A DNA stretch of 64,000 nt from contig JAUIAP010000016.1 in NCBI GenBank assembly GCA_030425205.1, positions 55,956 to 119,955 on the forward strand. Reading direction: 5' to 3'. The position numbers and the translations under genes are program-made. Positions within the stretch are counted from its first letter, which is position 1, and each line of letters starts with the position of its first letter. Below the pieces are notes generated by a model. It did no database searches, was not told the DNA's origin, and saw nothing but the letters and a program-made list of their open reading frames with translations. Positions 35,245 to 60,800 of the stretch are shown one piece after another. This DNA comes from Anaerolineae bacterium. Lineage in GTDB: Bacteria; Chloroflexota; Anaerolineae; Promineifilales; Promineifilaceae.

Positions 35245-36882
35245 ATGACCGACTCTGTACAGGTGCGTGGTGAACCGCTGCGTTCGGCCGAATTGCCCGC
35301 AACCCTGCCGCATGATGCACCATTAACCCGCCGCATGGCTCCCCCGCCCATCCCCATTATCGCCCTCAATCGTATGGCGTATGGCATCACCGAAGCTGAC
35401 CTTGCCCACTTCAACAGCTTGGGCAATAGTGATGAAGAACGGCTTGCCGCCTATGTCGATGAACAACTCGACCCGGCCAACATCGATGACAGCGATTACG
35501 AAAATCGTCTCGTCAACACCAATTGGATCACCCACAACTTAACGACCGAGCAACTTTGGATCGACTATCGGCGCGACTTTGCGGGGGAAACCAATTCAGC
35601 ATTGCCGCTCGATGAGCTACGACGGTTGGCACTGCTCCGTGCTGTTTACAGCAAACGCCAACTGCAAGCGGTCATGGTCGATTTCTGGCACAACCATTTT
35701 AACGTGCATGGCCCACAATTTATTATTCGTTCGATGATTATGGCGTATGACCGCGACGTGATGGTTCCCAATGCGTTTGGCAACTTCCGCACATTTCTTG
35801 AGGCGGTCGGCACAAATGTGTCAATGCTTTACTATCTCGACAACTACACCAATTCATCAGGTGGCCCCAATGAAAATTACGCTCGCGAGCTGTTTGAGCT
35901 ACATGGATTGGGTGAAGAAAACTATCTCGGCGCAGGCATTCGCCAACATGAGGTGGCCGGTTATCCCGACAACCCCGTTGGTTATGTCGATGATGATGTC
36001 TACGAGGCGACCCGCTGCTTTACAGGCTGGACGCTCAGCAACAGCACGAATAATCCGACAATTGGCGATACGGGTGAATTTTACTATCGTGACGATTGGC
36101 ATGATCGTTTCCAAAAGCAGGTGTTGGGTGAGTATATTCCTGCCAATCAAGCACCGCTGGCAGACGGCAAAAAGGTTTACGATTTGCTCGCCGGCCATCC
36201 GGGAACGGCGCGCTATATCTGTCGCAAGTTGTGTCGGCGGTTCATTTCGGATGATCCTGACGAGAGTTTGGTGCAGGCGGCGGCCGATGTTTTTCTGGCG
36301 CAAAAGGATGCCCCCGACCAGATTGCACAGGTGTTGCGCTATATTTTGAATTCGGCCGAATTTCGCACCACCTTCGGCACAAAGGTTAAGCGTCCATTTG
36401 AAGGCTTGGCCGCCCAACTGCGTGCGACCAATGCCAACATCAATCTCGACATTGGCGATAGCGACGGCAACACCATCATCTATCGCCTTGACGATGCGGG
36501 ACATCAACTGTTCGATTGGCCTGCTCCCAATGGCTACCCCGATGTGGCAGGCTATTGGCTCAACACGACTTCGATCTACAAACGCTGGCGGCTGTTCAAC
36601 TGGTTGATGAGTGACCGCGATCAAGACGACAACTTCCACATGGACATCGTTGGGGAAACACCCACAGATTCCACGAGTGCGGAAGGGTTGACCGATTATT
36701 GGATCGGCCGAATTTTTGGCTACACGCTCCCAGATGCGGAGCGTCAAGAGTTCATCGACTTCATGGCGGCTGGCTACAACCCAACCTACAACCTGCCCAT
36801 CGCTACAAACGAAGAAACGGCCGAACGGCTACGCGCCCTCGTTGGTCTCATGTTTATGTCGCCGAGCTTTCTATTGCGCTAA
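35245..36882 (+). CDS. DUF1800 domain protein
   Basis: Conserved DUF1800 blocks (..RAVYSKRQLQAVMVDFWHNHFNV.., ..YLDNYTNSSGGPNENYARELFELHGLG..); forms the usual pair with following DUF1501 gene. Confidence 0.7.
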   Translation: MTDSVQVRGEPLRSAELPATLPHDAPLTRRMAPPPIPIIALNRMAYGITEADLAHFNSLGNSDEERLAAYVDEQLDPANIDDSDYENRLVNTNWITHNLTTEQLWIDYRRDFAGETNSALPLDELRRLALLRAVYSKRQLQAVMVDFWHNHFNVHGPQFIIRSMIMAYDRDVMVPNAFGNFRTFLEAVGTNVSMLYYLDNYTNSSGGPNENYARELFELHGLGEENYLGAGIRQHEVAGYPDNPVGYVDDDVYEATRCFTGWTLSNSTNNPTIGDTGEFYYRDDWHDRFQKQVLGEYIPANQAPLADGKKVYDLLAGHPGTARYICRKLCRRFISDDPDESLVQAAADVFLAQKDAPDQIAQVLRYILNSAEFRTTFGTKVKRPFEGLAAQLRATNANINLDIGDSDGNTIIYRLDDAGHQLFDWPAPNGYPDVAGYWLNTTSIYKRWRLFNWLMSDRDQDDNFHMDIVGETPTDSTSAEGLTDYWIGRIFGYTLPDAERQEFIDFMAAGYNPTYNLPIATNEETAERLRALVGLMFMSPSFLLR

Positions 36883-36926
36883 ATCGGATCGAGGTTCCAA
36901 ATTGAAACCTCGTTTGTGGAGAACTC

Positions 36927-38351
36927 ATGTCACAACTATCACGACGCGGATTCCTCAAGGGATGTTCCGCAGCTATTGCCGCCATGAGCGGCGCAACCTT
37001 TCAGGGAGCCGTTTTTGGCAACCCTGAAGACGAACCAAATCAAGACATCTTAATCACTGTTTTCCTGCGTGGGGGCGCAGATGTCCTCAACATCATTCCA
37101 CCCATCGGCGGCGATGATCGCGGGCTTTACGAGCTGGCGCGTGAAGATATTGCCATCCCAACGACAGGCGATCTGGCCGCGCTGCAACTCGGCAGCAGCG
37201 CATTTGGCTTGCACAACAGCATGGGCGCACTGCACGAACTGTATGGCGATGGCAAACTCGCCATCGTCCAAGCGACAGGCATGCACCAAGACACGCGCAG
37301 CCATTTTGAAGCGATGTCGATGATCGAACTCGGGACACCGGGTGCAAAAAGCACCGTTAGCGGCTGGATGGCACGCCATTTTGAGAGCGCAACAAATCTT
37401 CCATCCACCATTCTCATGCCCGCTCTTGCCATGGGCAGCAGCGCACCGACCGCCTTTGCAACGAGCAACGAGGTGGTCGCCATGGATACGACCGACAGCT
37501 TTAGTCTCGACGGCCATTGGCGTTGGCGCGATGCTCAGCGGGCCGCCTTGCGTCGTCTCTACGCCATGGACAGTGGGCAAATCCACAGCGCAGGCCTTCA
37601 GGCGATGAATGGGGCTGACTTGATCAATCTCAACGCGCAAGGCGGCTACACGCCAGAAGCGGGGGTCGTTTATCCAGATAACTCGTTCGGCCGACATTTG
37701 CAAACCATCGCTCAAATGGTCAAGCTGCAACTGGGGCTGCGGATGGCGACTGTCGATCTCGGCGGGTGGGACACGCACGACGGACAAGGCAGCGACGGCG
37801 GGGGCTACTTCTATGATCTGCTGGCGACGCTTTCAGCGGGCTTGTCCGCCTTCTACAACGATCTCAACGTCTCGGGGCGTGCCAACTATACAGATCGGGT
37901 GACGGTGGTGGTGATGAGCGAATTCGGCCGAAGATTGCGCCAAAACGCAGATGAGGGAACCGACCACGGCCACGGTGGTGCGATGTTTGTGTTGGGTGGG
38001 CAGGTCAACGGCGGTCTCTATGGCACATGGCCGGGCTTGGCGACCGAGAACCTCTATGACAACGCCGATCTCGCCGTCACGACCGACTATCGTCAAGTGC
38101 TCAGCGAACTGCTGATCCGTCGCCTCGAAAATCCCAATCTCGGCTATGTCTTCCCTGACTACACCGACTATTCACCGCTGGGGATTGTGCAAGGGGCGGA
38201 TATGGAGCCAGTTTATAGTTCTGTTCCCACAGCGGTTGATTTGCGGGCGGTGCAATCATCAGCAGGGGCGGCTGGCAAAGTGGCGACGGTGGCGGGGGTT
38301 GGATTGGCGGCAACGGCGGGGCTGGTTGCGTTGCGCGAGCGGGGGGCGTAA
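36927..38351 (+). CDS. DUF1501 domain protein with Tat signal peptide
   Basis: MSQLSRRGFLKGCSAAIAAMSG = twin-arginine signal; DUF1501/sulfatase-like fold blocks (..VVVMSEFGRRL..GTDHGHGG..). Confidence 0.75.
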   Translation: MSQLSRRGFLKGCSAAIAAMSGATFQGAVFGNPEDEPNQDILITVFLRGGADVLNIIPPIGGDDRGLYELAREDIAIPTTGDLAALQLGSSAFGLHNSMGALHELYGDGKLAIVQATGMHQDTRSHFEAMSMIELGTPGAKSTVSGWMARHFESATNLPSTILMPALAMGSSAPTAFATSNEVVAMDTTDSFSLDGHWRWRDAQRAALRRLYAMDSGQIHSAGLQAMNGADLINLNAQGGYTPEAGVVYPDNSFGRHLQTIAQMVKLQLGLRMATVDLGGWDTHDGQGSDGGGYFYDLLATLSAGLSAFYNDLNVSGRANYTDRVTVVVMSEFGRRLRQNADEGTDHGHGGAMFVLGGQVNGGLYGTWPGLATENLYDNADLAVTTDYRQVLSELLIRRLENPNLGYVFPDYTDYSPLGIVQGADMEPVYSSVPTAVDLRAVQSSAGAAGKVATVAGVGLAATAGLVALRERGA

Positions 38352-38404: not shown

Positions 38405-41400
38405 TTACGGCGATTCGACGATCACAATTTCGGAAGCAGATCGGCCGAAAACCTCTGGCGAATACATCTCTTCTGCCTTTGCTGGGGGAACAACAAACAC
38501 ACCCGGCGTTGTCGCACGTGCCACAAATTCATATTCATGGACACCCGCGTAGAGCAGCGTCGTAAACGCTTCGGCGCGTTCGTCGCGCAGGTTGACGTGG
38601 TCATACCAACGCCACCACCACCAGTAGTTTGGTTCATCCTCATCGTTGGGTGCGTCTGGGACAGCGACCGTATTTGCCAACCCCTCGTTGATGATTTCCA
38701 AGCCAGCGGGGAGTGGCGAAACCAGTGCCACGTGCGTGCGGCGGCTGTCTGCCACCATCGTCAGCTTGACGCGCACTTTCGCGCCAGCCTTGATGTGCCA
38801 GTTACCATCTTCATCTTGCGTCACGTCGGCTGGGTCATCGACCGCCTCATATTCGCGCAGCACGATGAAGCCACGATCGAGCGGATCGAGTGCCAAATCA
38901 CTCGGCGCATAGCGTAAGCCCAAGCGATAGTACAGTCGTCCGGCACCCTCTTTGCTGATGATGACGTTTTGTGCATCGGCCGAATCAGCGAGGAAGGTCA
39001 ACGGCACATCCGTCGCGTGGCGGTCTGTCGTGCGACCTTCGTAGACGTGTTCGGCCGCATACGTCTCACCTAGCCATACTCGCGCCACAAAATCGGGGGT
39101 CTGTGCCTCAAACGTCTCGAAGTAGCGATCCATCGCCAGCAGAATAAAGACGTTTTCCTGCGTGTTGTGCCAGCGTCCGCGCGTTTTGTCGGCGAGCAAG
39201 CCGTTGACCACCTTCACGATTAGGTCGCTATCGGGGTCGTTGGCGATCAGCGCATCGAGGATCACGCCATCGGTACGGCGATTGCTGTGCATGATGACAT
39301 AGGCATCATCGCTGTATTCGGTCGTGAAGGTGGCTGCATTGGCCGTTTCGACGGCACGGTTCTCGAAGTAGCGGCTGATTTCGGCCGATTCCGTTCCCTC
39401 ACTGCCAATCACCTGCCAAACCCATGCCAACGCCTCTGGGGCCAGCCCATCTGCACCGTTACGGTTGTAAAGTGCAAGTGCTTCGTCGCGGTCATTGTCG
39501 CCGCTCAAATCACGTACATACAGCGCATAGGCGCGAATCGTGTTCTTAATGTCTTCACTGTACCAGCTTGGGAAGTGGCTATCGACGTTCTCCAAATAGT
39601 TGAGCGCACGACTGAGCATATCGGCCGGCACGTCGTAGCCGTTCATCTGGGCGCGCACAAGTGCGTGGGTGACGTGTGCCGTCAGGAACGGATAGGAGGT
39701 GCGATTGCTCGACCACCAGCGGAAACCGCCGTCACTCGTTTGCAGTCGCGCAATCCCTTCGATGTCAGCCCGTACTTGCGCTTCGATCTCTGCTTGTTCG
39801 GGCATCCCGTCCGCATCAAACGCGCTCAACACGTCTTGCAACGCGGCGATGGCGAGAATGCGCGAGCCACGTGCTTCGCTGCTCTCATAGGGATAATCGA
39901 CCAAGTAGAGAACGGCATCGGTCAACGCTTGCAGCGCGGTCGACGAGGTGTCAATTTCTAAGCCGCCAAACTGTGTATACACGCCCTCTGGCACGGCAAC
40001 CGTTTGGGCAATTGCGCCCTCATCGATCACGCCATAGGTGGCGAACGCTTCCGTCGTTGCGGGCGTGTAGACGGGCAAATCGATATTGGCTGCATCCGCA
40101 TAGTCGCCAGAAACGGCGGCAAATTGGAAGCGGGCCAAGCCCGGCTGGTCGGTGGTCGTTGGGAAGCGCACCTCGATGCGGTCATTGGCGGGAACGGTGA
40201 CACGTTGGCCGTTGCCTTCTGTCAGCGCAACGTTTGTTGCCGTGACGACGACATCGACGACCATATCTTCGTCAGTCTGGTTTTGCAGAACGACGGGCAG
40301 TTCAAAGCTATCCCCAAAGTTGAGGAAGCGCGGTGCAGATGGGCGCACCATCAGCGGTAGACGGGCCGTGAGATTGCTTTCGGCCGATCCAAACAGCTTC
40401 TCGCCGCTGACAGCAACCGCCATAATCCGATAGCGTGTCAAGTTGTCAGGCAACGTCACCTCAACGCTGGCGTTGCCGTTGCCATCGGTCGTGACCGTCG
40501 GCGCAAACAACGCGAGGGCATCAAAGTTAGTGCGAACCTGAATCGGGTCTTGATTATTACCGCTTGTGGCCTCATCGGCGGCCACTTGAGTTGCCATTGG
40601 CGCAGGTGCACTGTTCAAATTAGCACCATCATCAGCACTATCAAACGCCATAGACTCTTCCATCACCTCCCCTTCAGTGGCCCCACCAACCGCACTGCGA
40701 GCAACATCTTGGACGGCGTTCCCCGCCAATTGGGTCGGGTCGACCAAGACGAGTTGGGCGCGGCTGTGCGACCCTTGCAGGTAGGTGTAGCGATTTTGAT
40801 AGATGGCGTTGAGTGGATTGACGAGCTGATAGTTTGTCAATGCCAGCACCGCTTCATCGACAACGACAAGCGCGATTTCTGAGTTGGTGACAGGATTGCC
40901 ATTGGCATCGGTCACGGTCAAATCAATCGTGGTGCTGCCGCCGGGTTCAAGCCCTGTCTCTTGCGGCTTGAGTTCGATGTCGAGCTCACGGCTGCGCGTC
41001 GAGATGGGCAGTTCGATGCTGCCGACCGCATAGGCGGGGCGAGCTGGTGCGTCGGGCAAGGGTGTGCCGTCGTCCAGCGTGCGCGGCTGTGCGCCCACAA
41101 GATCGATCTGCACGTTGATATTGGGCAAATACACCTCTTCGATAGGGATTTCGATGATGGTCGTGTCTCCTTCCATCGTGAAGCGTTCGGTTGAAACGAT
41201 GCCCTGTCGCGTCAGCGTGAGCAGCCCTTCCGCGTTTGGAATCGGTGACTGCACCAAAATTTCAGCGACATCGCCGGGTGCAAATGTCTCTTGGCTAGGA
41301 ATCAACGTGACTTGTTCTTGTTCGACGTTGCGATTCGGCCGATTGTCGCCACCACTGACCCAGCGTGTAATTTCGCTTTCATTACCACGCCCTTGCGCGT

Positions 41401-44400
41401 CGGTGATGGTCGCCGTGATGCGATATTGTCCGCCTTCTTCCGTCGTGAAGGTGCAGATGACCGCTTCAGCACCAGAGGTCACGTTGCAAGTTTGCACGTC
41501 GGCCTCTGTCTGTTGCCAGCGTCCACTGCTAAACGTCCATTCGAGCCGTGCCGCTTGCAGCGTAATCGGCGTGTTTGCAACGGCATTGCCGTCGATGTCT
41601 GTGACAATCGCCTCAATGTCGAGCGGTGTGCCTTGGCGGACAAAGTAGCGGTCGCTGCGTAAGCCCACATAAAGATCGGCGGGATGGACGAGCAGACTGG
41701 TGCTTGCACCCCAGCCTTGTCGGTTTACATCGATCACTTCGGCCGATGCTTCTACGCTATATGGTCGATTGGCTTCAAATTCGTCAAAGTCGATTCGCAA
41801 ATAGTGGTCGCCACTCGCGTCGGTGCGTCCTTCAAAGCTCTCATAGCTGCTCTCATTGCCTTCATAGTAGAAAGAATCATCATACCAGCCCCACCATGGC
41901 GTCCATTTGCCGAAGCTGAAATCGCTCCAGTTGGGTGGTGAGTAGGTGGTTGGATTGCTGTAGACGTTCCAGTAGACTTCGGCGTTGGGCAGTGCGCCGC
42001 CCGCGAAGTATTCGGCCGTAACACCCACAACCGCATGACCACCAATAAAGTGTGGCGATGGGGTCTCATTGCGTGCCGTTACCTCAAACTCTGGACGACG
42101 GAACTCTTGGATTTGGAATTGATGATAGTAGCTGCCATTTGGCATCCGAAATTCGATGTTGGCATAGCCGAGATTGACATCTTCGGGCAGATCAATGGTT
42201 AAATCGAAGCCGCCGAGAGTGGATAGTTCAACTGAACCAGTCGATAACTCATTCCCTTGTGACCCACGCACAGTATAGTTGATCGTCTGTGCGTCATCCC
42301 ACAGCGCAATGTCACCCAATGCGCCCGGTTCAACTCTGCGAACAAACCCCTTAACGCTCATTGTCTCGCCGGGACGATACATGGCGCGGTCATCAAAGAT
42401 GACCCAGCGCACCTCGCCGACATTGCGTTCGTTGTACCATTCCCCATACCCATATTCATTGGCAGGTAGCAGGGCGATGTCGTCGCCACTTTGAACGGTC
42501 AGATAGTTCACGCCGTCGGGGAAGTCAGAGATGCGAATTGTGCCATCGGCCGATGTTGTCGCCGATTGACCCTGAAACTGTACGGTCGCATCCGCTATCG
42601 ATGCGCCATCGCTCAACTGATTCGCCCAAACGATCATCTCCCCATTGCCCAATAGTGCATCCACGCCGATGTCCGTCACTTGCACCCAATGGGTGACAAC
42701 CGGGCGATAGCGATTGGTAAAGCGATCGATCAATCCTTCCGTTGGGGTAACGCGGATGATCGCGTGTCCATGCTCGCCATTGAGGGCTGCGCTCAGGTCG
42801 ATTGGTGTGACGGTTAGTTTGTCGTCTTCGCCGTCAACGCTGACGGTTTCATCAAAGACAAGTTCACCGGGTGGCGAGGGTGGATTATCGCGGTATGCAT
42901 TTTGCTGATACCTTAAGAACGCTTCCCAATCAGCGAGCGAAACCTTGTAAACCTGCACGTCAATATTTGGCACATTGATCGAATAGACGCTAATGGCTGG
43001 ATTGGGAGCGGCGGGATCGAGCGTGACAAGCGGCTTGTTCGCGCCGAAAAGGGTGGGTTCGGCCGAATCAATATCCTGCTCAAACTCATAATCGGCGCCC
43101 ATCGTCTGCCCAAAAATGTCCTGAATTTCGCCACTGAGACGAACCGTATAGGTTGAACGAGGCTGCCATGCGCCGCGAATGCTCATATAGTTGCCATAAA
43201 CACCGACAATTGCGTTCGGGATTTCTGGCTCAATCGTCACCCAATTGATGTCAAACAGTTGTGGATCGAGTGGGTTGGTAAATTCGATGCTGACTTCGCC
43301 ATAGGGGGGGCAGTTCCCGCCGTAGCCACAGCGTGTCTCGCGGACGGCCAGTGGTGGATAGGTTTGGGTTGAATAGGAAAATGTCTGGTCGCTTGTGCGT
43401 GCGCCTTCCAACGATGGCACGTTGGGGCCGATCTGGATGCTAATTGAAGTATCTGGTTGGAAGGGGTCAACGGCGCGGAATGCCACCCAACGATTATCGG
43501 GATGATTTTCTGCCAGTCCGTTGATGCGCTCATCGGCCGAAATTTCTTCCGCTGTTGCCAAGCGCAGCGCAACCTCGTTGCCACCTGCCGTCACCGTCGT
43601 CACGTCCAAAATAGCGGCCGGGTCAACGCGCTGGTCAAAGCCTGCAAAGAAGATCGGTTCCAGCGGTTGCGAACCGTCTTGTGGATAAAATGTTTGGATT
43701 TGTGGGGTCGGCGTGCGGAAAGAGAATGAAACCGTCTCTTGCAATGTCCCACCCGTTTCAGAGGTTGTTCCCGCAGGAATCTCGATTGTCACTTCGGTGG
43801 ACATCGGCAGGCGGTCGATTTGATCGGAAGCAAACTCGAAGCGTGCCGTCTGGGTTCCTAACCAAATCCACTCACCGGGCAGGTTGGGGGTCATGACCAT
43901 CGGCACATCCATTGCGGCAAGCTGATCTTGCGTCGCAATTGGCACCATCGGCTGATTAAATGTGACGGCAATAAACGGCGCAATCGTCACATCTCCCTCT
44001 GGAGCAAAACGAATCACTTCGAGATCACCGTCATTGTTGACCACTTCAACGGGTGGCGGCGCGAGTTCACCGGGGGCAGGGAACTGCTCATTGATCGTCT
44101 CACCCGTCAGTGGGGGTGGAATCAGCTGGGTTGGCAAATTAAGCTCAACTTGATCACTCGCCTCGCGCTGCAATTGGGGTAGGCGGGCGAGGATTTGGGC
44201 GATCACTTCAGATGGCAGACCTTCCCCTTGCACGACCTGATTTAGGATTGGCGCACTGTCCGCTTCGGGATTTCCCGCGCTCAGGCGCATACCAAAACGC
44301 GGCTGATTGCCTAGCTCGGCCGCCGCAAATGGATCGACCTGTAAAATCATGCCACTCTCTCCTGTTTGACTGGTTGTGTTGCCGCCATCTGGAACAGGCG

Positions 44401-44509
44401 TCGTTACGCCGTCAGGGGTCGGCGTGGGATCATCAGGCTGCTGGTCGCGGCAGTTGACAAGCGCGAACGTTAACAGCAAGAACAAGGTAATCAATAGGTT
44501 TCTTCTCAT
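38405..44509 (-). CDS. giant secreted alpha-2-macroglobulin-family protein (2034 aa), thioester motif absent
   Basis: Signal peptide MRRNLLITLFLLLTFALVNC (possible lipobox Cys) with GGAG RBS; multiple MG/Ig-like domains; A2M TED-like region ..ALQALTDAVLYLVDYPYESSEARGSRILAIAALQDV.. where canonical YPYGCxEQ thioester is YPYESSEA (no Cys/Gln); receptor-binding-like C-terminus. Confidence 0.7.
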   Translation of the reverse strand: MRRNLLITLFLLLTFALVNCRDQQPDDPTPTPDGVTTPVPDGGNTTSQTGESGMILQVDPFAAAELGNQPRFGMRLSAGNPEADSAPILNQVVQGEGLPSEVIAQILARLPQLQREASDQVELNLPTQLIPPPLTGETINEQFPAPGELAPPPVEVVNNDGDLEVIRFAPEGDVTIAPFIAVTFNQPMVPIATQDQLAAMDVPMVMTPNLPGEWIWLGTQTARFEFASDQIDRLPMSTEVTIEIPAGTTSETGGTLQETVSFSFRTPTPQIQTFYPQDGSQPLEPIFFAGFDQRVDPAAILDVTTVTAGGNEVALRLATAEEISADERINGLAENHPDNRWVAFRAVDPFQPDTSISIQIGPNVPSLEGARTSDQTFSYSTQTYPPLAVRETRCGYGGNCPPYGEVSIEFTNPLDPQLFDINWVTIEPEIPNAIVGVYGNYMSIRGAWQPRSTYTVRLSGEIQDIFGQTMGADYEFEQDIDSAEPTLFGANKPLVTLDPAAPNPAISVYSINVPNIDVQVYKVSLADWEAFLRYQQNAYRDNPPSPPGELVFDETVSVDGEDDKLTVTPIDLSAALNGEHGHAIIRVTPTEGLIDRFTNRYRPVVTHWVQVTDIGVDALLGNGEMIVWANQLSDGASIADATVQFQGQSATTSADGTIRISDFPDGVNYLTVQSGDDIALLPANEYGYGEWYNERNVGEVRWVIFDDRAMYRPGETMSVKGFVRRVEPGALGDIALWDDAQTINYTVRGSQGNELSTGSVELSTLGGFDLTIDLPEDVNLGYANIEFRMPNGSYYHQFQIQEFRRPEFEVTARNETPSPHFIGGHAVVGVTAEYFAGGALPNAEVYWNVYSNPTTYSPPNWSDFSFGKWTPWWGWYDDSFYYEGNESSYESFEGRTDASGDHYLRIDFDEFEANRPYSVEASAEVIDVNRQGWGASTSLLVHPADLYVGLRSDRYFVRQGTPLDIEAIVTDIDGNAVANTPITLQAARLEWTFSSGRWQQTEADVQTCNVTSGAEAVICTFTTEEGGQYRITATITDAQGRGNESEITRWVSGGDNRPNRNVEQEQVTLIPSQETFAPGDVAEILVQSPIPNAEGLLTLTRQGIVSTERFTMEGDTTIIEIPIEEVYLPNINVQIDLVGAQPRTLDDGTPLPDAPARPAYAVGSIELPISTRSRELDIELKPQETGLEPGGSTTIDLTVTDANGNPVTNSEIALVVVDEAVLALTNYQLVNPLNAIYQNRYTYLQGSHSRAQLVLVDPTQLAGNAVQDVARSAVGGATEGEVMEESMAFDSADDGANLNSAPAPMATQVAADEATSGNNQDPIQVRTNFDALALFAPTVTTDGNGNASVEVTLPDNLTRYRIMAVAVSGEKLFGSAESNLTARLPLMVRPSAPRFLNFGDSFELPVVLQNQTDEDMVVDVVVTATNVALTEGNGQRVTVPANDRIEVRFPTTTDQPGLARFQFAAVSGDYADAANIDLPVYTPATTEAFATYGVIDEGAIAQTVAVPEGVYTQFGGLEIDTSSTALQALTDAVLYLVDYPYESSEARGSRILAIAALQDVLSAFDADGMPEQAEIEAQVRADIEGIARLQTSDGGFRWWSSNRTSYPFLTAHVTHALVRAQMNGYDVPADMLSRALNYLENVDSHFPSWYSEDIKNTIRAYALYVRDLSGDNDRDEALALYNRNGADGLAPEALAWVWQVIGSEGTESAEISRYFENRAVETANAATFTTEYSDDAYVIMHSNRRTDGVILDALIANDPDSDLIVKVVNGLLADKTRGRWHNTQENVFILLAMDRYFETFEAQTPDFVARVWLGETYAAEHVYEGRTTDRHATDVPLTFLADSADAQNVIISKEGAGRLYYRLGLRYAPSDLALDPLDRGFIVLREYEAVDDPADVTQDEDGNWHIKAGAKVRVKLTMVADSRRTHVALVSPLPAGLEIINEGLANTVAVPDAPNDEDEPNYWWWWRWYDHVNLRDERAEAFTTLLYAGVHEYEFVARATTPGVFVVPPAKAEEMYSPEVFGRSASEIVIVESP

Positions 44510-44888
44510 TTCGTCTCCGTTAGTATGAATGGACATTCGTCCACTCAACATTTGATAATTATACAGGCGCGACGATCAAAATAAGACCGCCGCGCCACCC
44601 TGAAGGGTCTGGCTTTAGATATAACGGAGGCGGCGTGCGATTTGTTCCACAATTGATGGGATTGGTTTTGGCGCGTTTGGCATCATGCGGTGCAGTCGAC
44701 CTGTGTCTTACCCATTTGCCCTTGATCTGTGGATAAGGTGTGGATTTTTTGTGAGTAAGCTGTTGAAGGCGACTCATAATTCATTAAGGTTTTACTTTGG
44801 TGCGTGTGGTGCAAACAAAATGGGCGCGTCTCCGTTGCGGAAACGCGCCCATTCGTCATTTAATCATGCCCCAACTCAGGACGTTCGA

Positions 44889-47800
44889 TTATTCTGGCAA
44901 TAGTCCAATCCAATAGTCGTTGCCACCCCAATAGTAGCTGCCCGACCAGTAGTAGCTGCCGTTCCAGTAGTAGCTGGCCAAGTCAAAGAGGCTGTTACCC
45001 GCCCAGTAGTAACTGCCACCCCAATAGTAGGTGCCACTCCAATAGTACGTCCCGCTCCAGTAGTAACTGCCTGACCAGTAGTAGGTTCCGCTCCAGTAGT
45101 AGGTTCCAGCCCAATAGTAGGTTCCGTTCCAGAGATAGCCGTCAGAATCGGCCGATAATGCACTCTCCGCCGTCACATGCACGATGGGTTCAATTCCGGC
45201 ATCTAGCACAACATTTGTACAGCGATACTGATTGCCTTCCTGATGTTTGGCAACGACCCACCTGTGATTGCGATAGGTTTGACGCGATACTGTCTGACCG
45301 GGATGAATCGTCGCTTTTAATTGCGGACTGCCACTATAGCTGAGCCAGAACAAATACATCGTTTCGTTGCTTGAATTCTCCACCGTCAGCGTTGTGGAAT
45401 TGAGACCGTCTAACGACGAGCGAATGTCGCTCAACTCTTCACAGCGGGGATCACGCCCATGGACACGATAGCCGCCTGCATCCTCGTCGTAGTAGGCAGG
45501 TCCCACATAACGACCACCAGCGTGCATGTTTTGCGAAACATTGCCGCTATAGCTTCCATAAATCGCATCATACGGCTTCAAACGCCCTGCACCTTGCTGG
45601 AAGATGCTAAACGTCGTCTGTTGACCCGAAGAGTCACGCACGAGCGGTTGTGCCGATGCTTGCAGGCGGAACTTCACCTGATCAGGCGTCAACTCTGGAT
45701 TTTCTTGCAACATGAGGGCGACCACGCCAGATGTAACGGCGGTGGCGGCCGATGTGCCAGACCCTAAATAGTAGCCGCTATTCGTTTTCCGCACGCGTCG
45801 GTTGTTGGCATAACGACTGTTTGATTGCTGTGGTTGGGCGATGTGTGCGCCGGGTGCAACGATGTCGGGTTTAACAAAACCCATCTCGGTTGGTCCGGCC
45901 GCGCTAAATGGCGGAATATAGTCATCACTCGCATAGCCCGGCGTATACGCATCGGTGTAGGCACCGACCGTCACGACCATTGGGTCGTTGCCCGGTGTCG
46001 TGATCGAACCCGCGTATGGGCCCGTGTTGCCCGCCGCAACAATCACGACAACACCAGCATCCCACAGCAGTTCAACCGCCGTGTTAATTGGATTCTCCCA
46101 ATACGGCCCCGTCACAGGCCCCATCAGTGACAAGTTGACGACGCGGATATTCAACGCTTCATGGTGATCGTAGATGACCTCAAGACCACGTAGTACGTCT
46201 GCGTAGGTCGATTTTCCATCAGGGTCTAGCACGCGGATATCGTAGATGTTTGCGTCTGGTGCAACGCTGACAAAACGTCCTCTATGCCTATCGTTGCCGG
46301 CAATGATGCTGGCCATAAATGAGCCATGTCCATTTTCGTCGATGTCGGTATCGGGTAGTGCATTGTAGCGCATCACTACATTATTTTTTAGAACGGCTGG
46401 ATTGATTCCCGTATCCACAACGGCAACGCCAATGCCTGCACCACTAAGGCCTGCCTGATGGAGAGCGGGAATGCCGATTTCATCTAAATAGTCAGTTGGA
46501 GAGACCTCGGACGCTGTCGTCTTTTGTGTTTCATAAGGGGCAAGATAGCTGCCGGAGATGACTTCACGACGACCGTTGGGGATTTGCCACGCGACAGAGA
46601 GATGGTCGGCTCCCGTATGTTCTTTTTGAATCGCCTCAATATAGTAACGTTGCCCAGCTTCGAGATAAATTTTGCGCGACTTCTGTGATGCAAGCCAATT
46701 CCATTCGTGATAGTAGGTCCACTCGGTCACTGAGGCGATTTGTTGCGCTTCGTCGGGTCGCTCTGTTGCGCTGAGATAGAGGCGTGCATAGTTGTTGCCA
46801 GCCAACCAGAAGGTATATTCGCCCGTCACGGGTGGGTATAGATAGCCGCGTACGCGAGTCCCATAATGATCATCCATGTTGACGGGGGTTTCAAATTCGT
46901 TGATGTGACTCGTTCCCGTTGGATTGTTTGGATAGTTAGGATGGTTTAGTAGTGCGTTCAGGCTATCGCCGTTGACGTTGAGCCAGTATTCGCGCAGGAT
47001 TGTCCCACGACTATCATCAGGGCGAGAGCGGAAGAGAACTTCGTCTTGAATCGGCCGTTTTGAGAAGTTCGCGCTTTGATATGAGACGACGAGTCTATCG
47101 ACATAGCCATAGCCACCAAAATACTCGACTGTAATTGGATGATACCCTTGCTTGAGGAAGATGGTGCCGCTGCGTTCGCGTAGACCATGCAGGCCGTCAT
47201 TATCGACGACGAGTTGCCCATTGATGTGTACTTGGCTGCCGCCATTTGATTCGCTATAAAATGTGTAGGTTTCATCACGGTCAATGTAAATAAAACCGGT
47301 GTAACGGAAACCAAAGTAATCAATGCGTCCACGCACAGATAGATCGATGTTGTCGACCGTACCATGAAATGTCGGTACTAGATTTTCAAAATTAGGCAAA
47401 CGCGACCACCAGCCTTGATAGTACTGATAGAAAAGACCGTTGTCGCTGCCGCGCGCTGTGCCACCGTTCTGCTGGTTGAGCGTAATGTTGTCGAGATAGA
47501 AGGTCGGTTGGGGAGATTCGGTCAAACTTTGCCAAATGATGCCGTGAATGGGTGTATCGGCCGAAATAATCTCATCAAGCGCAATTTCATACTGCATCCA
47601 CGCGCCCTTTTCGGCCGTGACGGTCGTCTGCGACTTGCCCCAGTCGATTCCATCGGCCGTCACTAGCTGCAACCAGAGCGTTTGCCCGCCGGATTCGCCA
47701 CCATGCAACCAAAAACTCAGCGTGTCAACTTCATCGACCGTGAATGGCTTGTTCGTTTTGAGATAGAACGCCGAATGTGCCGCATCAAGTGAGACGGCAA

Positions 47801-48371
47801 CGCTACTCAGATTATCGGTTTGTGTTGGTTCTGGGTTTGCAGCGGTCGTTTCGGCCGATCCCCATGGCACGATCTCCCAATCAGTTCCTAGCCGATCTGC
47901 ATACAACATCTGCGATGACGTGCTGGCTAGTTCGACTGGTGCAACCTCGCGGCCACCTTGCGACTGCTGCGGCGTGCTCTCATGCATCAGCGTCGGCAAA
48001 AATACGGTGTGGAGGGGGGAATCCTCAGTTGGATAACGCTCCGTGTGGGTGATAATCGGGGTTGCTGAGATCGCGTTGTTGAGCGTGTGGAGTGGGGCAT
48101 CGAGCGCCACGTTTTCAATCCCTTCGACCGCCTCTAACGCCGTCATTTGGAGCGGCGGGAGCGACACCACATAGCTGTCGATAAATGGTACTGGCTCAAC
48201 AATCGAACCACCAACAGCACTCACCGCTTCTGCAACACCTTCAAACCCCTCTGCCGCTCGCACAACAACGCGCACTGCTGGCAGATCGGCCGATTGATCG
48301 GCTTTCACTTGGGCGGGGGTTGCCCAAACACAAAAAAGGCCAATACACACCGACCAAAAAATCAGACGCAT
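44889..48371 (-). CDS. secreted subtilisin-like serine protease (S8) with two PA14 domains and C-terminal YYW hexapeptide repeat array
   Basis: Signal peptide MRLIFWSVCIGLFCVWATPAQVKA; S8 triad motifs VAVVDTGIN (Asp), HGSFMASIIAG (His), GTSAATAVTSGVVAL (Ser); PA14-like blocks (GLFYQYYQGWW..YTGFIYIDRDETYTFYSESNGGSQVHINGQLVVDN and ..VRGYLYPPVTGEYTFWLAGNNYARLYL..). Confidence 0.75.
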   Translation of the reverse strand: MRLIFWSVCIGLFCVWATPAQVKADQSADLPAVRVVVRAAEGFEGVAEAVSAVGGSIVEPVPFIDSYVVSLPPLQMTALEAVEGIENVALDAPLHTLNNAISATPIITHTERYPTEDSPLHTVFLPTLMHESTPQQSQGGREVAPVELASTSSQMLYADRLGTDWEIVPWGSAETTAANPEPTQTDNLSSVAVSLDAAHSAFYLKTNKPFTVDEVDTLSFWLHGGESGGQTLWLQLVTADGIDWGKSQTTVTAEKGAWMQYEIALDEIISADTPIHGIIWQSLTESPQPTFYLDNITLNQQNGGTARGSDNGLFYQYYQGWWSRLPNFENLVPTFHGTVDNIDLSVRGRIDYFGFRYTGFIYIDRDETYTFYSESNGGSQVHINGQLVVDNDGLHGLRERSGTIFLKQGYHPITVEYFGGYGYVDRLVVSYQSANFSKRPIQDEVLFRSRPDDSRGTILREYWLNVNGDSLNALLNHPNYPNNPTGTSHINEFETPVNMDDHYGTRVRGYLYPPVTGEYTFWLAGNNYARLYLSATERPDEAQQIASVTEWTYYHEWNWLASQKSRKIYLEAGQRYYIEAIQKEHTGADHLSVAWQIPNGRREVISGSYLAPYETQKTTASEVSPTDYLDEIGIPALHQAGLSGAGIGVAVVDTGINPAVLKNNVVMRYNALPDTDIDENGHGSFMASIIAGNDRHRGRFVSVAPDANIYDIRVLDPDGKSTYADVLRGLEVIYDHHEALNIRVVNLSLMGPVTGPYWENPINTAVELLWDAGVVVIVAAGNTGPYAGSITTPGNDPMVVTVGAYTDAYTPGYASDDYIPPFSAAGPTEMGFVKPDIVAPGAHIAQPQQSNSRYANNRRVRKTNSGYYLGSGTSAATAVTSGVVALMLQENPELTPDQVKFRLQASAQPLVRDSSGQQTTFSIFQQGAGRLKPYDAIYGSYSGNVSQNMHAGGRYVGPAYYDEDAGGYRVHGRDPRCEELSDIRSSLDGLNSTTLTVENSSNETMYLFWLSYSGSPQLKATIHPGQTVSRQTYRNHRWVVAKHQEGNQYRCTNVVLDAGIEPIVHVTAESALSADSDGYLWNGTYYWAGTYYWSGTYYWSGSYYWSGTYYWSGTYYWGGSYYWAGNSLFDLASYYWNGSYYWSGSYYWGGNDYWIGLLPE
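44892..45160. repeat. 18-bp tandem DNA repeat (~14 units) encoding (G/S)xYYW(S/A) hexapeptide array at C-terminus of S8/PA14 protease
   Basis: ccagtagtagctgcc.. units repeated head-to-tail; translates (minus strand) to GTYYWAGTYYWSGTYYWSGSYYWSGTYYWSGTYYWGGSYYWAG...SYYWNGSYYWSGSYYWGGNDYWIGLLPE. Confidence 0.8.
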
Positions 48372-48525: not shown

Positions 48526-49194
48526 TTACAAGGTGACTTGCAAACTGTAGAGATGTGCCTGTTTGTGTTTGCCAATTCTATGCACAAGCGCAAGTTTATG
48601 CAGGCAGTACATCATCTGCTGGGCGCGGCGGCGTGGGATGTTGGCATGATCGGCGAGATCAGCGGTCGTGAAGGGGGTTGGGAGCGTTTTTGGGAGGAGC
48701 AAGAGGAGATCGGCCGAATTCTCAATGCGCACCCAATCTTTAACTTTTAAGAGGCGACGCGCCGTGATCATCCAGCCGCGTCGCCGTCCATATTTGCGCT
48801 TGGGGTCATATTCGCGCTCAATTTCATCTTGCACTAGGAGCAGTTCGATCGAAAGATTGGGGTCATCGAGCGACGTGGGCAGCGCGACCAGTTGTTCAAA
48901 AATATCGTGCAGCGTGCCACGTTTGGGGGATTTGCGCCGCTTGCCCTGTTTGATGATCCAACGTTCGGCCGAAATTGGATAGACAATCGTGACGGCATGG
49001 GTGGGGAGAAAGTGGGAGAGTTTGGCCCTTAATCGGCCGAAGCTGCCTGTTTGAACTTCGATCAAGCGTTCCCCACGCACAATGTCAATCACAAACCGAT
49101 CGATTGGCACCTCAAACTGATCGCCGGGCTGCGCCAGCCACGACTTTACCTGTGCATGTAATTCCCGTTCGTTCAATGTGCCAATGTCGGACAT
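48526..49194 (-). CDS. hypothetical protein with PD-(D/E)xK nuclease-like motif arrangement
   Basis: N-terminal ..ELHAQVKSWL..(E)..PIDRFVIDIV(D)..RLIEVQT (E-x-Q/K) spacing reminiscent of restriction-endonuclease-like fold; basic C-terminal half. Abuts IS element left end. Confidence 0.35.
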   Translation of the reverse strand: MSDIGTLNERELHAQVKSWLAQPGDQFEVPIDRFVIDIVRGERLIEVQTGSFGRLRAKLSHFLPTHAVTIVYPISAERWIIKQGKRRKSPKRGTLHDIFEQLVALPTSLDDPNLSIELLLVQDEIEREYDPKRKYGRRRGWMITARRLLKVKDWVRIENSADLLLLLPKTLPTPFTTADLADHANIPRRRAQQMMYCLHKLALVHRIGKHKQAHLYSLQVTL

Positions 49195-49199
49195 GCCCT

Positions 49200-50525
49200 A
49201 AGGATCGCGAATTAAATAACTGTCGTAAATGATAGTTGCGGCATGGCACGATAATTCCACTTGGGCAGATAGGCATCAAAAATAATCGGCATCGTTTCCC
49301 TGAATGTGTCTGAAACCTTGCGACCAGTCTGGTAGAGTTTGTCGAAAACGGCGACAGAGACAGAAAGCCCAGTAGCCGTTTTGGTGCGTGCAATCAGGTC
49401 ACGAACGATGGCAACAGATTTGAAGACAACTCCTTGACAGGCAAGGGTGACATGGGGGAATAAGCGATGCTCAATCGGATTGTATTTGGAACAGTAAGGC
49501 GGATAATGGGCAATACGAATCTCGATGCCGATGTCATTGACCAATTTCTGTAATTCTTCCTTGAAAATATAATAGTGTGAACTGTTGCTGCCGCCACCAT
49601 CGCAAAGCAGCAGAATAGAGGTTGCATTGGGATAGTGATGTTGACCCGCACTCATCCACCAGTGCCGAATACTATCGCAGGCAAATTGACTGGTATCTTT
49701 ACTGGTTCCGATATGGATATACCCGTGATTGAGGGCTAAATCATAGAGCGCATGAGGAATCACAATGCCATCTGCGCTACTGGTAAAATCATGGTCATTG
49801 GTCTGGATAACCTGTTGGGTATACAGGCGACCGTCACGGTAAAAATTGCCCAGATACTCCTTCTTTTTCGTGTCCATACTCACGACAGGGTTGCCACTTT
49901 CCATGTACACTTTGCGTAGTTGTTCAATGTTCTTGAACTGTTCATCCCGATTAGCCACCTGACCCATTGTCACACTCTTCTGTGCTTTACGACGCCGAAA
50001 ACGATGTTGATTCAGTAACTTTTTGACCGTTGTCACACTCGTTTTTAATTGGTGTTCTTCCAGCATCATCTCGCTGATCTCTCTTGGTTTTAGATGTGTC
50101 CAGCGTATTCCCTCATCCATCGGGTCTCCCGCCGTATACGTCTCAATCACCTTAAGAAATGCTGCATTCAACCGTTCTTTTTTTGTCAAATGGTTTGCGC
50201 CCACCCCCTGGTCGGCGAATTCGTCCTGCTGGGATTTCATTCTTATTGCTCGCCAATTCAGCTTGCCCTCGTTGAATGGTTCTCGCTGAGCAACCCAACA
50301 CACTTTCCATATACAACTGTCCGCCATACCCCACCTTTTTGGCTTCTAGTGCTGCATAATGCCGCTTATCTCGCTCCGAGAGCGTTTCAAAAAACTTGCG
50401 CATTTGTTGTTCTATTTCTACGTCGTATTTTTTCATTTTTAGCTCCATTCTGTCAAAATATGATTGTAGTCCTTTCTCTTTCCCTTTGGCTACAATTACG
50501 ACATCTATTTAATTCGCGATCCTAA
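49200..50525 (-). mobile_element. ISAzo13-family insertion sequence (~1.3 kb) with ~19-26 bp terminal inverted repeats
   Basis: Left end ctAAGGATCGCGAATTAAATAactgtcg (49199-) vs reverse complement of right end ..cgacatcTATTTAATTCGCGATCCTtag (..50525): 18-bp perfect IR plus imperfect extension; internal DDE_Tnp_ISAZ013-type transposase; element lacks the TCGGCCGA palindrome that saturates flanking DNA. Confidence 0.75.
49212..50448 (-). pseudogene. ISAzo13-family transposase split by frameshift (N-terminal HTH ORF 50152..50448; DDE C-terminal ORF 49212..50327)
   Basis: N-terminal ORF (..MESVLGCSARTIQRGQAELASN..GGRKPF) is the HTH part; C-terminal ORF has ..TAGDPM.., ..VVSMDTKKKEYLGNFYRDG.., ..LLLCDGGGSNS.. 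(DDE). Two overlapping frames of ~175 nt suggest frameshift (inactivating or programmed). Confidence 0.6.
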
Positions 50526-55851: not shown

Positions 55852-56026
55852 TTTAAACTCTCCTTTATCGTGCTGAATTTTCGGCCGATTATAACACGAT
55901 CTTCTACATCCTCCCCCACCTTAACATAGCCAAAACAAACCATTGAAAAATCGATAACATGCCCAATCGTGGCACGATTGGGCGGGTTAAACATGCTGCG
56001 AGAACGCATCAAAATGTGCGTTTTCC

Positions 56027-57833: not shown

Positions 57834-60800
57834 TCAGGCGACTTTCGAGCGCAACCGACGAACCAAGAGCCCAATCGTGGATACGCAGAACAATAACATG
57901 AGCAGACTCAGGCTGTTGGGCGCGATGACGGTTACCGTGCGCAACATGACGGCGGTGGGAAGCGTTCCCGTGCGCTCGAATGCGCCCATGTCATACAAGC
58001 CAGCGCGGGCGGCATCTTGGGGGCGTATCGCGTTGTCGAGATCGTTCGGCAAGCCTGTCGCGCACTGGTCAACGGCTGGCGAGGCGGCGGCAAGGCGATA
58101 GTTACCCCGTCCCGTCACCTCAAACTGTGGATCGACACTGATGTTGTCCGTCCCAGCAAGCGGGCTGCCCTGCGTCAAGTTGCAGTTGGCGTTAAGCACT
58201 GCGCTCCCGTGCAAGCCAATGTTGATCGAGTTGCCCCAGACGATGTTGTTGCTTAAATTGACGGTCGTATTGTTATTGGCGTAAAGTGGCTGACCATTGG
58301 GGTTGTCGGCAATCGTCGCATGTTTACCGGTGAAGGTGCCATTATCAACCTCAACGACCGAACGGTTATGTGTGCCCGTGAGCAGTGCATTGTACAGTTC
58401 AATGTCGGCCGCATTGGTTTGATAGAGTGCGCTGCCAAAGCTGGCGTTGCCCGCCGTATTGTCGCGCAAGGCGACACCACGCAACTGGGCGGCACTGTCG
58501 TTAAAGTAGAACGCCCCGCCGTGTGAATCGGCCGAATTTCCCACCAACTCATTGCAATACTGATTCGCATTGAGCGCAAGCACATTGCACGCCAACCCGC
58601 CACCGCCGTAGAGCGGTTCGAGCGTCAAATCGCTGCTCGCAAACAATGCGGCAAATCCACCCTCCCCATCGGCATGATTCGACTCACCGATCACGTTGAC
58701 CAAACTCACGGTCGACGAATTAGCGGCAAAGATTGCGCCGCCGTCCCCATCCGTCTCGTTTTCTGTGATGCGCGTCCCCGTCAGTGCAACGGTCGCATTG
58801 ACCGTAGCGTAGACACCTCCGCCCGCTGAATCGGCCGAATTGTCGAGCAGCACACCCCCGTTGGCGCGCAGCGAACTATTCGGCCCAGAGACAAATGCAC
58901 CGCCACCAAACGCCGCGCTGTTGGCTGGGCAAACGATGAAATCACACTGGTTGCCCAGCGTTGCACTGTCGTTTAGTTCGGCAACCGCGCCGTTGGTCAG
59001 ATAGATGCCGCCGCCATTGTCGTTGGCGTGACTATTGGCGATGCGGCTATTGCCAAACAGCGCGATCCGACCGCCATCCACATACGCCCCGCCACCGCTC
59101 GTCGCGCTCTGGTTATCGCCAAAGAGAATTGCCGAGCCGACATAGCTATCGGTGAGCGTTACGGTGCCAGCGGGGGCAATGGCGATGCCGGCACCCCCAT
59201 CACCTACGTCTGTCCCTGTGGTGCTGCTGCCATAAATGGTGCTACCGTTGCGCAATTCGGCCGATCCCGCAAAGACGCGCAAGCCACCACCGTTATCACT
59301 CGCAACCCCGTCGATTAGGGCCACATTGTCGAGAATCAACGTGCTGTTTCCACTCACGTAGGCGATCCCGCCCCAACGCGCGCGCGCATTTTGCAGGCGC
59401 ATATTTTGCAACGTGACCGTCGCCCCATTGCTGACTTCAACCACGCCGCCCTGCGTCGCAAACGCATTGTCGCGATCAATTTCTGCATAGTCGATGGCGC
59501 GATTAGCCGCAGCCGTGCAGTCGCCGTTGCCACTGGTTAGCGTCAAATCTTTTTCAATGTCGCCCATGTGCTCGTTGTAATAGCCTGTCTGAATGTAGAT
59601 GGTGTCACCAGCAGATGCAGCCGTAATCGCGTCCACGATGGTGCCATAGGCACACGTTGCACCGTTGATGCCGACAAAGTGATGGAGTTCATCTGCACCC
59701 GCGTCATAGTCGCCCGCGTTGACCTCTTCGCAGTTATAGCAAACAAAGCTGAAATGTTGATCGGTCGTATCGCCGTTGTAGTAGTAGGCATCGCCGCCCA
59801 GCGTGGGGGCATAGATGCGGATGGCATATTCGCCTGCCACGGGGTTTTCAATCCAAACGTTTTCAACGGGATTATGAATGTCGTTGAAATTATCCCCAAC
59901 CGCGCTCCAGCCATCGTTGCCAAACTTATTGCCAACCCAGATATTGCCGTTCGGGTCGGTCACGCGCAATTTGAGATCGTTTACGAGCGGGTTGAGCGCG
60001 CCCGGTGCGCCCGGTGCGTCGGACCATGCCAGCGACAGGCGCAGCGGTTCGCCCGTGTCGCTGACCGTCACAACGAGGTCATAGAACTGCCCAATATCAG
60101 TCAGCAGAACCGGGTTTTCATAAAATAGGATGGGCACGGGCGGGTTGAGTAGACGGTCGATGTTGACACGCCCCCAGCCTTGATGCGGATTCGGCCGATT
60201 GCCCATCACGTTGTTCCAGCCATCCAATCCACCGCCGAGATCATCGGTCGTTGCGATCAACGCCGCCTTGACCGTTGCGGGTTCAGGATTGGCATTGTTG
60301 CCATTCCGCACATACCACTGTTGCGTAAACAATGCGGCCGCGCCAGCAACGTGGGGCGAAGCCATGCTCGTGCCGTTGCAAAAGGCGTGCTGCGTTGTGC
60401 CAGCAGGGGATGTGGCACACGATTCGTTGATCGCGCCATCGCGGTTCTCAGTGCTGACGATGCGGTTGCCCGGCGCAACGACATCAGGTTGAATCAGACT
60501 CGACACGGCCAAGTTGACGGCTGGGCCACGACTGCTAAAAAAGGTGATGTCGTTGGGACTATCGTTTGTGCCACCAAACGTGTCGGAGCGTTCACTGTCG
60601 TGGCTGCCGACGTTGACGATATTTTTTGCCTCTTTCGGTTCTGTGATGGAGTCGAGACAGGGGCCGGGACCACAATCATCGCCCGCATTGCCGGCCGCAA
60701 AGATGGTCAGGAACGGATTACGTCCGCCGCCCGTCAATGCATCGAGGGTCGCGTCATCTTGATTGGCCGCGAGCTGTGTATAACCCGCTCCCGCTGGCCC

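Follow-up and report, generated by a model that had tools for sequence, protein, structure and literature searches.

Which role can a short, aromatic-rich tandem repeat play at the very end of a bacterial protease? This question is raised by contig JAUIAP010000016.1 of an Anaerolineae bacterium (assembly GCA_030425205.1), of which a stretch of 64,000 nucleotides, positions 55,956 to 119,955, was analysed and is called here the window. The gene under study encodes, on the minus strand, a protein with PA14 and Peptidase_S8 domains that ends in an array of hexapeptides built around Tyr-Tyr-Trp (YYW). In Anaerolineae, Caldilineae and Ardenticatenia, groups that abound in digesters, sediments and hot springs, secreted subtilases rank as major degraders of protein. 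We find that the tail of this enzyme is a length-stable, position-specific C-terminal module, selected at the protein level and coupled to S8 peptidases. Judged by its sequence, it is a hexad variant of a module carried by a large family, since 104 of the 120 closest S8 relatives end in Trp-periodic arrays. As for its function, we lean tentatively towards an S8-specific extracellular C-terminal extension whose aromatic residues would serve for multivalent binding or retention.

Layout and conservation of the YYW array

The array forms the extreme C-terminus of the protein and holds ten exact x-YYW-x units plus two degenerate ones at its ends, GYLWNG first and NDYWIG last. An earlier note on this DNA had described about 14 hexapeptide copies encoded by an 18-bp repeat; the array, its C-terminal position and its period stand (Tandem Repeats Finder reports 44910-45120, period 18 bp, 11.6 copies, 69% matches), and the count has to be lowered to 12 Trp-centred units. 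The insert NSLFDLA splits the array into 8 + 4 units and shifts the register by one residue, the 12 Trp being spaced at 6 residues with this single +1 shift. An equivalent interruption was found in all four other large YYW proteins. The first block runs in the order GYLWNG, GTYYWA, GTYYWS, GTYYWS, GSYYWS, GTYYWS, GTYYWG, GSYYWA, and the order of the second, YYWN / GSYYWS / GSYYW(S/G) / G(N/S)DYW(L/I), is common to two related proteins from other contigs, L003 and L004. Tyr-Tyr-Trp is invariant across the ten exact units, which come in 7 protein versions, and no other YYW turns up when the window is translated in all six frames.

At the DNA level the units have drifted well apart, contrary to the little drift that had been claimed for them. 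None of the 45 pairs among the ten units is identical, and their identity in pairs averages 75% (range 61-94%). Gly is written GGC, GGA or GGG in the first position of a unit and GGT in the sixth, Ser is written both AGY and TCN, and the codon differences between units comprise 67 synonymous and 67 non-synonymous ones. The first Tyr of all ten units is TAC; the rest of the gene favours TAT (41 TAT, 18 TAC).

The comparison with relatives tells how stable this arrangement is. The ortholog L004, located on an independent contig from an Ardenticatenaceae metagenome-assembled genome (MAG), is 77% identical and repeats the layout of 1+7 units, insert and 3+1 units, with 0 gaps in the alignment of the two tails. 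In the tail, 45 codons are identical, 27 differ synonymously and 11 non-synonymously, as compared to 340, 317 and 206 outside it. Between L004 and its paralog L003 of the same MAG, protein identity is 86% in the tail and 42% in the rest. The fraction of shared codons among identical residues is equal in both parts (0.36 in the tail, 0.37 in the rest), so the tails do not owe their likeness to recent gene conversion. The first, post-insert and last units are position-specific and conserved across the YYW proteins. On these alignments, the tail surpasses every other part of the Ardenticatenaceae enzymes in conservation, position-specific units included. Because the layout is gap-free in L004 and the codon differences in its tail are mostly synonymous, the array reads as old, under purifying selection at the protein level and stable in copy number. 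Ongoing expansion and contraction, which the earlier note had suggested, finds no support, the copy number and layout being the same in an ortholog of 77% identity and the layout also being kept in paralogs that are 42% identical outside the tail.

The same data bear on the most trivial explanation, namely that the array is a slippage-prone low-complexity spacer or stalk, or an artefact of assembly. The composition is indeed of low complexity, and the sequences of some relatives (P0117, P0120, P0132) are cut by contig ends at the start of the repeat. Against this, every unit is distinguishable in its DNA, an independent MAG contig presents the identical layout, purifying selection is strong and position-specific, and the arrays have a strict preference for one position and one protein family, as described below. 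An assembly artefact or a linker of no preferred position, either of which would have undone the original observation, is thus essentially ruled out, and we give this explanation next to no weight.

Occurrence of YYW arrays and the wider tail family

A search for the taxonomic spread of the motif and for its position in proteins had been proposed. We scanned one genome for each of 185,579 species with a degenerate DNA pattern for three consecutive YYW units, obtaining 5 loci, in Chloroflexota only: three on separate contigs of a single Ardenticatenaceae MAG, one in another MAG of that family and one in an Anaerolineaceae MAG. The four large YYW proteins, all from Ardenticatenaceae, are S8 peptidases with a bipartite C-terminal YYW array. 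Their N-terminal domains are PA14 plus Laminin_G_3 in one, two PA14 plus a VHL-like domain in another and none in a third, the fourth lying at a cut locus. The fifth locus holds the sole YYW array found off S8 peptidases. It is a stand-alone 60-residue open reading frame of Anaerolineaceae (L002:2330-2512, minus strand, PABI01000106.1; MSKRYLVFSLVVLLAVLLIPVAMFVING..NLTGGYYWAGGYYWAGGYYWAG) with a hydrophobic N-terminal helix, three YYW units and the C-terminus GGYYWAGGYYWAGGYYWAG. Its signals comprise a strong AGGAG ribosome-binding site and a hairpin resembling a terminator, and it is flanked by a 974-residue membrane protein and a 383-residue protein. Three loci that matched the pattern in Joint Genome Institute metagenomes were rejected as unrelated, two being Cys/Tyr/Trp-rich low-complexity open reading frames and one an LYYWIG-type repeat.

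The YYW unit is rare, and the kind of tail to which it belongs is common. With the S8 domain plus tail as query against 5.8 billion proteins (E <= 1e-10), 2160 relatives were retrieved, the best being 40-53% identical and, where named, assigned to Anaerolineales, Anaerolineae or Chloroflexi; none of the relatives has YYW. We defined a Trp-periodic tail as at least 4 Trp at a fixed spacing of 6 or 7 residues, following the S8 domain and a linker of ~50 residues, near the C-terminus. Among the 120 closest relatives, 104 end in such an array, 85 of heptads and 19 of hexads. The heptad units include GGFGTWA, GAYGAWS, GGHGSWA, GAIGSWS, GKYGIWS and GRAGTWS, among others, and the hexad ones GGYLWS, NGFLWN and GGGVAW+SEAYTW. 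Counts of Trp in these arrays have their peak at 11-15, and the last array Trp stands a median of 37 residues before the C-terminus.

The arrays of the relatives share the consensus G-G-Y-G-x-W-S. In the logo of 82 heptad proteins, position 1 is G (100%), position 2 is G, A or K, position 3 is Y or F (78%), position 4 is G (85%), position 5 is S, A, T, V or I, position 6 is W (100%) and position 7 is S or A (98%). The canonical heptad changes from protein to protein, with 52 different units in these 82 proteins. Special units at fixed places are common to many arrays, for example GGY(T/S)TW a few units before the end, and many close with a conserved stretch of ~35 residues, ..SEPWAG..F..F..SP....W(V/I)(E/D)EP. 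The window unit, G-(T/S)-Y-Y-W-(S/A/G/N), and its GLLPE end carry the further residues by which the Trp-periodic tail is defined, namely small ones about the Trp, an aromatic or hydrophobic one 2-3 positions ahead, and a short end that is acidic or contains Pro. Other ends among relatives are GLLPEG, GLVDSAD, GLIPGDEQ and GLTVDPD, the heptad type ending in ..W(V/I)(E/D)(E/D)P.

Most of the 16 relatives without an array are cut by contig ends. The closest relatives, P0117, P0120, P0132 and others, are partial, their contigs stopping exactly where a hexad array starts (..YMWDGGNFWNGG, ..AAGYSW). The arrays thus break short-read assemblies, and hexad-type tails are therefore under-represented in databases, where many family members are truncated at the repeat. 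This tail family spans hundreds to thousands of secreted Chloroflexota S8 proteases and almost nothing else, and it appears to be undescribed. We think that it deserves attention for practical reasons too. There are more than 2,000 database relatives, most of the complete ones among the 120 examined have a Trp-periodic tail, and the tail is a clearly defined module of one enzyme family that can be tested directly.

Coupling to S8 peptidases

In order to follow the tail independently of the catalytic domain, a profile of 30 heptad tails, containing no S8 residues, was searched against 1.84 billion representative sequences (E <= 1e-3). It gave 712 matches, with unrelated heptad repeats mixed in. 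From the 30 long matches (>= 400 residues) with a Trp array, 20 were picked by eye, mostly Gly-rich ones, and scanned with Pfam; 18 contain Peptidase_S8, and the named members are Caldilineaceae and Anaerolineaceae. The other two, an FGGY kinase and a tRNA synthetase with Gly fractions of 0.28 and 0.13, look like unrelated repeats. The N-terminal partners of the tail-bearing S8 proteins vary between PA14, Laminin_G_3, a PQQ propeller or none. As in known subtilase C-terminal extensions, the window tail lies directly C-terminal to the S8 domain and is inherited together with it. Taken together, these matches indicate that the tail is coupled to S8 peptidases.

The coupling is not bound to one end of the protein. 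In four remote S8 proteins (P0308, P0318, P0356 and P0260) a Trp-heptad array is N-terminal to the catalytic domain; three of them carry signals of the lipoprotein type, and their array follows the pro-region and precedes the catalytic domain. P0260 has 24 YGDIGPW units after its signal peptide, ahead of the S8 domain, and a long C-terminal region.

These arrangements call for considering that the tail is a tethered self-substrate or C-terminal pro-region, that is, an exposed and flexible run of subtilisin-type sites that would occupy or occlude the protease, or aid its folding, until digested, with activation or release timed in this way. It deserves a place in the discussion because the association with S8 is exclusive, whether the array is C-terminal or between pro-region and catalytic domain, and because such N-terminal variants exist. 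Cleavage would place Trp at P1, Ser/Ala at P1' and, in the heptads, Tyr/Phe at P4, three residues ahead of the Trp; subtilisins have a general P1/P4 preference that would fit the heptad logo at these positions (100%, 98% and 78%). Structure prediction with AlphaFold2 and the alignment of 109 sequences would agree with a flexible stretch, as the tail is modelled as coil, with a predicted local distance difference test (pLDDT) of 20-35, and the S8 domain exceeds 90. The single-sequence run gives beta strands instead, with pLDDT about 60, so that the two predictions contradict each other and a reliable fold of the tail comes from neither. Moreover, a cleavable stretch needs no conserved unit count, no position-specific units and no tail identity of 86% next to 42% elsewhere, and hexads such as GTYYWS and GGVAWS have no aromatic residue at P4. 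We thus regard a role as self-substrate or pro-region as possible, on the unlikely side.

Comparison with known families and systems

The window tail is matched by none of the Pfam or NCBIfam models. This covers the cell-wall/choline-binding repeat PF01473, without a Pfam match on the tail at E <= 0.1, and the left-handed beta-helix hexapeptide PF00132 and its relatives, with hexads of the form [LIV]-[GAED]-x2-[STAV]-x, which have no Pfam match either, the units lacking a fixed aliphatic position. For sortase, exosortase, archaeosortase and rhombosortase signals, the end ...GNDYWIGLLPE offers no hydrophobic helix, no basic residues and no NCBIfam match. The C-terminal domain of the type IX secretion system (T9SS), PF18962, is not among the Pfam matches of the window protein; this domain occurs in unrelated PA14 proteins. 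The earlier statement that the tail is not a named sorting signal is thus upheld. Like C-terminal sorting signals (LPXTG, PEP-CTERM, PGF-CTERM, GlyGly-CTERM and the T9SS domain), the tail occupies the extreme C-terminus of secreted proteases and, between paralogs whose domain sets differ, is conserved more strongly than the remainder of the protein. Unlike them, it has no signature motif, no transmembrane helix with a basic cluster and no beta-sandwich domain, and it is confined to one enzyme family.

Sequence searches were equally silent. A phmmer-type search with the 86-residue tail alone gave 173 word-sharing candidates and no significant match, which we attribute to the composition correction suppressing the repeat; the Ardenticatenaceae MAG proteins are apparently outside that collection. 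With the whole protein, PA14 proteins dominate the results and no ortholog was returned. A search of PDB sequences with hexad and heptad tails returned only Tyr-rich third complementarity-determining region loops of antibody heavy chains (CDR-H3), or nothing, so the solved structures hold no sequence match to the tails. No paper with the unit strings, or with an account of such tails, was found in the literature searched.

One match above cut-off concerns a relative. The NCBIfam model of the peptide TigB, NF047709, scores 96.8 bits (cut-off 70) where the S8 relative P0139 has its GAIGSWS array, and it matches P0129 weakly; the window protein is not matched, and nor is its tail. TigB is a 60-residue peptide with five TIGSVS repeats, dependent on the radical S-adenosylmethionine (SAM) enzyme TigE, a cyclopropyl synthase (PMC10878394). 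A TigB-type precursor of a methyl-cyclopropylglycine peptide made on the ribosome and modified after translation (RiPP) was rejected for the window gene, whose product has 1174 residues, and there is no radical-SAM gene near it or near three relatives. The score of P0139 is explained by the IGSxS repeat common to both, and the match looks like a repeat-driven false positive. In our opinion, a dedicated family model would end such cross-matches above cut-off, to which automatic annotation is otherwise open, and would annotate thousands of proteins.

The TigB match nevertheless introduces another possible role, that of an enzyme-fused multi-copy peptide precursor. The S8 domain would cut its own or sister arrays after each Trp, liberating some 10-15 copies of a hexa- or heptapeptide peculiar to the lineage, for example SGTYYW or SGGYGAW, to serve as signals or antimicrobials in the manner of multi-core RiPP or pheromone precursors. 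It is worth weighing because, within a protein, the units are perfectly or almost perfectly identical despite scrambled synonymous sites. In three heptad genes the protein-identical units have 11 of 11, 9 of 11 and 8 of 9 different DNA versions; in one gene, all 11 GGFGTWA units differ from each other in their DNA. The 52 canonical heptads, the obligate coupling to S8 and the resemblance of the 60-residue L002 peptide to a short precursor agree with it as well. S8-type proteases are the usual processing enzymes of multi-core precursors. Compared with such precursors (TigB, cyanobactin PatE, yeast alpha-factor), the Trp tail is alike in its short, protein-identical, head-to-tail units. It differs in lacking a leader, any spacer or recognition sequence and a maturase in the neighbourhood, and in being fused to a large enzyme. 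Neither a radical-SAM enzyme nor a P450, another maturase or a transporter adjoins the window gene or three relatives, so that the requirement of TigB for TigE has no counterpart here. The window units also differ among themselves, and an enzyme of 1174 residues per 10 peptides is costly. These points make the precursor role improbable. If it were true, Chloroflexota would have a way of making ribosomal peptides that is fused to an enzyme and needs neither leader nor maturase, and it would explain at once the S8 exclusivity, the unit identity with scrambled codons and the at least 52 lineage-specific units.

A proposed multivalent aromatic module

We come back to the binding or retention module, the role that we tentatively prefer. 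It is suggested by a tail that is C-terminal, likely extracellular, selected at the protein level and joined to varied sets of N-terminal domains. That the tail behaves as a module is indicated by its occurrence with different N-terminal domains and by the stand-alone, membrane-anchored YYW peptide of Anaerolineaceae. In Ardenticatenaceae the YYW array serves as the hexad version of an extension that characterises a large clade of Chloroflexota S8 exoenzymes. This extension strings together about 12 mini-repeats, each 6 or 7 residues long, and closes with a short acidic end. Each mini-repeat presents an invariant Trp, with an aromatic or hydrophobic residue 2-3 positions ahead and Gly, Ser and Ala around. 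The protein would first be exported by Sec and the tail would work outside the cell, where the many Trp and Tyr side chains on a Gly/Ser scaffold could give contacts of low affinity and high avidity. Such contacts might keep the protease on a repetitive surface, either a polymer of the own envelope or sheath or an insoluble substrate. Afterwards, the enzyme may trim the tail at exposed aromatic residues.

Gly/Ser/Tyr/Trp-rich surfaces are typical binding surfaces, and aromatic C-terminal tandem repeats of the choline-binding type anchor secreted hydrolases in Firmicutes. These repeats (CW_binding_1, PF01473, in autolysins, toxins and glucansucrases) are the closest parallel in concept: aromatic-rich C-terminal tandem repeats (Gly-Trp, Tyr-Tyr) on secreted hydrolases, with non-covalent, multivalent binding to a repetitive envelope polymer, as proposed here for the Trp tail. 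However, their unit is of about 20 residues instead of 6-7, there is no hidden Markov model match, and they are found on many enzyme classes, whereas the Trp tail is almost only on S8. Subtilase extensions, such as the P-domain of kexin/furin, the C-terminal extension of halolysin and the C-terminal pro-sequence of aqualysin, are S8-specific and directly follow the catalytic domain, as the Trp tail does. The tail is conserved together with the catalytic domain and its removal by autoprocessing is possible, as in subtilase pro-regions. Unlike the tail, those extensions are globular and non-repetitive; none is Trp-periodic or similar to it in sequence. Finally, sticker-spacer regions ([G/S]Y[G/S] of FUS, GLFG nucleoporins, GGY silks and resilin) share the Gly/Ser scaffold, the regular aromatics and the low prediction confidence. 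They are eukaryotic, intracellular or structural, and irregular, whereas the Trp tail has an exact period, is position-specific and belongs to a bacterial exoenzyme.

Several points weigh against binding or retention. One would expect to meet a general surface anchor on many families of enzymes, and all four large YYW proteins, found with a DNA pattern blind to protein family, and 18 of the 20 long matches scanned are S8 peptidases. The N-terminal position of the array in some remote S8 proteins would suit a processing role better than an anchor. Moreover, no fold is predictable, and there is no similarity to known binding repeats in Pfam, NCBIfam or PDB.

Host gene and neighbourhood

The coordinates of the protease gene and its parts are collected in Table 1. 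The window protein has the S8 triad motifs AVVDTG, NGHGS and GSGTSAA, which place it in the S8 family; the motifs DTG, HGS and GTS are invariant across the 109-sequence alignment. A hydrophobic N-terminus is shared by 93 of 98 full-length relatives, and the window protein is probably secreted. The VHL-beta-like domain scores 26.8 bits in the ortholog L004, over the Pfam cut-off, and is absent from the YYW paralogs L001, L003 and L005. Starting 37 nt downstream of the protease stop, an inverted repeat is a possible transcription terminator. A consensus terminator scan did not report this hairpin downstream of the gene, because its loop exceeds 8 nt.

Table 1. Features of the protease gene and its surroundings in window coordinates
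Feature	Position	Strand	Basis or remark
Protease coding sequence, 1174 aa	44889..48413	-	Open reading frame list; stop codon 44889-44891; PA14, GLEYA-like and Peptidase_S8 by Pfam
Hydrophobic signal-peptide-like N-terminal segment, aa 15-38, MRLIFWSVCIGLFCVWATPAQVKA	48300..48371	-	Read from translation
PA14 domain, aa 365-456	47046..47321	-	Pfam PF07691, E 6.3e-23, 2 stretches
Second PA14/GLEYA-like stretch, aa 520-597	46623-46856	-	PF10528, E 1e-4
Peptidase_S8 catalytic domain, aa 658-926	45636..46442	-	Pfam PF00082, E 6.9e-45; AlphaFold2 pLDDT >90 throughout
VHL-beta-like small beta domain, aa 1010-1054	45252..45386	-	PF01847 19.7 bits, under cut-off 21; between S8 linker and array
Repeat block 1, aa 1092-1139	44997..45140	-	1 degenerate + 7 exact units; codon-by-codon listing
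Insert NSLFDLA, aa 1140-1146, 7 residues	44976..44996	-	Ortholog L004 has NTLYDLA
Repeat block 2, aa 1147-1169: SYYWNG, SYYWSG, SYYWGG, NDYWI	44907..44975	-	3 exact + 1 degenerate unit
Terminal pentapeptide GLLPE, aa 1170-1174	44892..44906	-	Sequence comparison with relatives
Inverted repeat ATGGGCGCGT..(12 nt)..AACGCGCCCAT then, on the minus strand, TTTTGTTTG	44822..44852	-	Read from sequence

No conserved partner or peptide-modifying enzyme was found around the window gene and three relatives. Upstream, at 48526-50327 (minus strand), there are a 222-residue open reading frame without Pfam match and an ISAZ013-type DDE transposase (E 1e-104), which suggests that the neighbourhood on this side is rearranged. 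Downstream, on the same strand, a gene at 38405-44551 encodes a 2048-residue bacterial alpha-2-macroglobulin (MG2, bait region, A2M, bMG10), a protease gene thus standing beside the gene of a protease trap. A functional pairing of both was discarded, as the alpha-2-macroglobulin gene was not detected over 5 kb on the downstream side of the ortholog L004. A second open reading frame of 2048 residues, at 57834-63980 (minus strand), was considered as a duplicate of this gene; with 7% identity it is unrelated, and the window contains no duplication. Adjoining the alpha-2-macroglobulin gene is a DUF1800/DUF1501 gene pair at 35245-38351 (plus strand), and in the best whole-protein matches DUF1800 is fused to PA14 domains.

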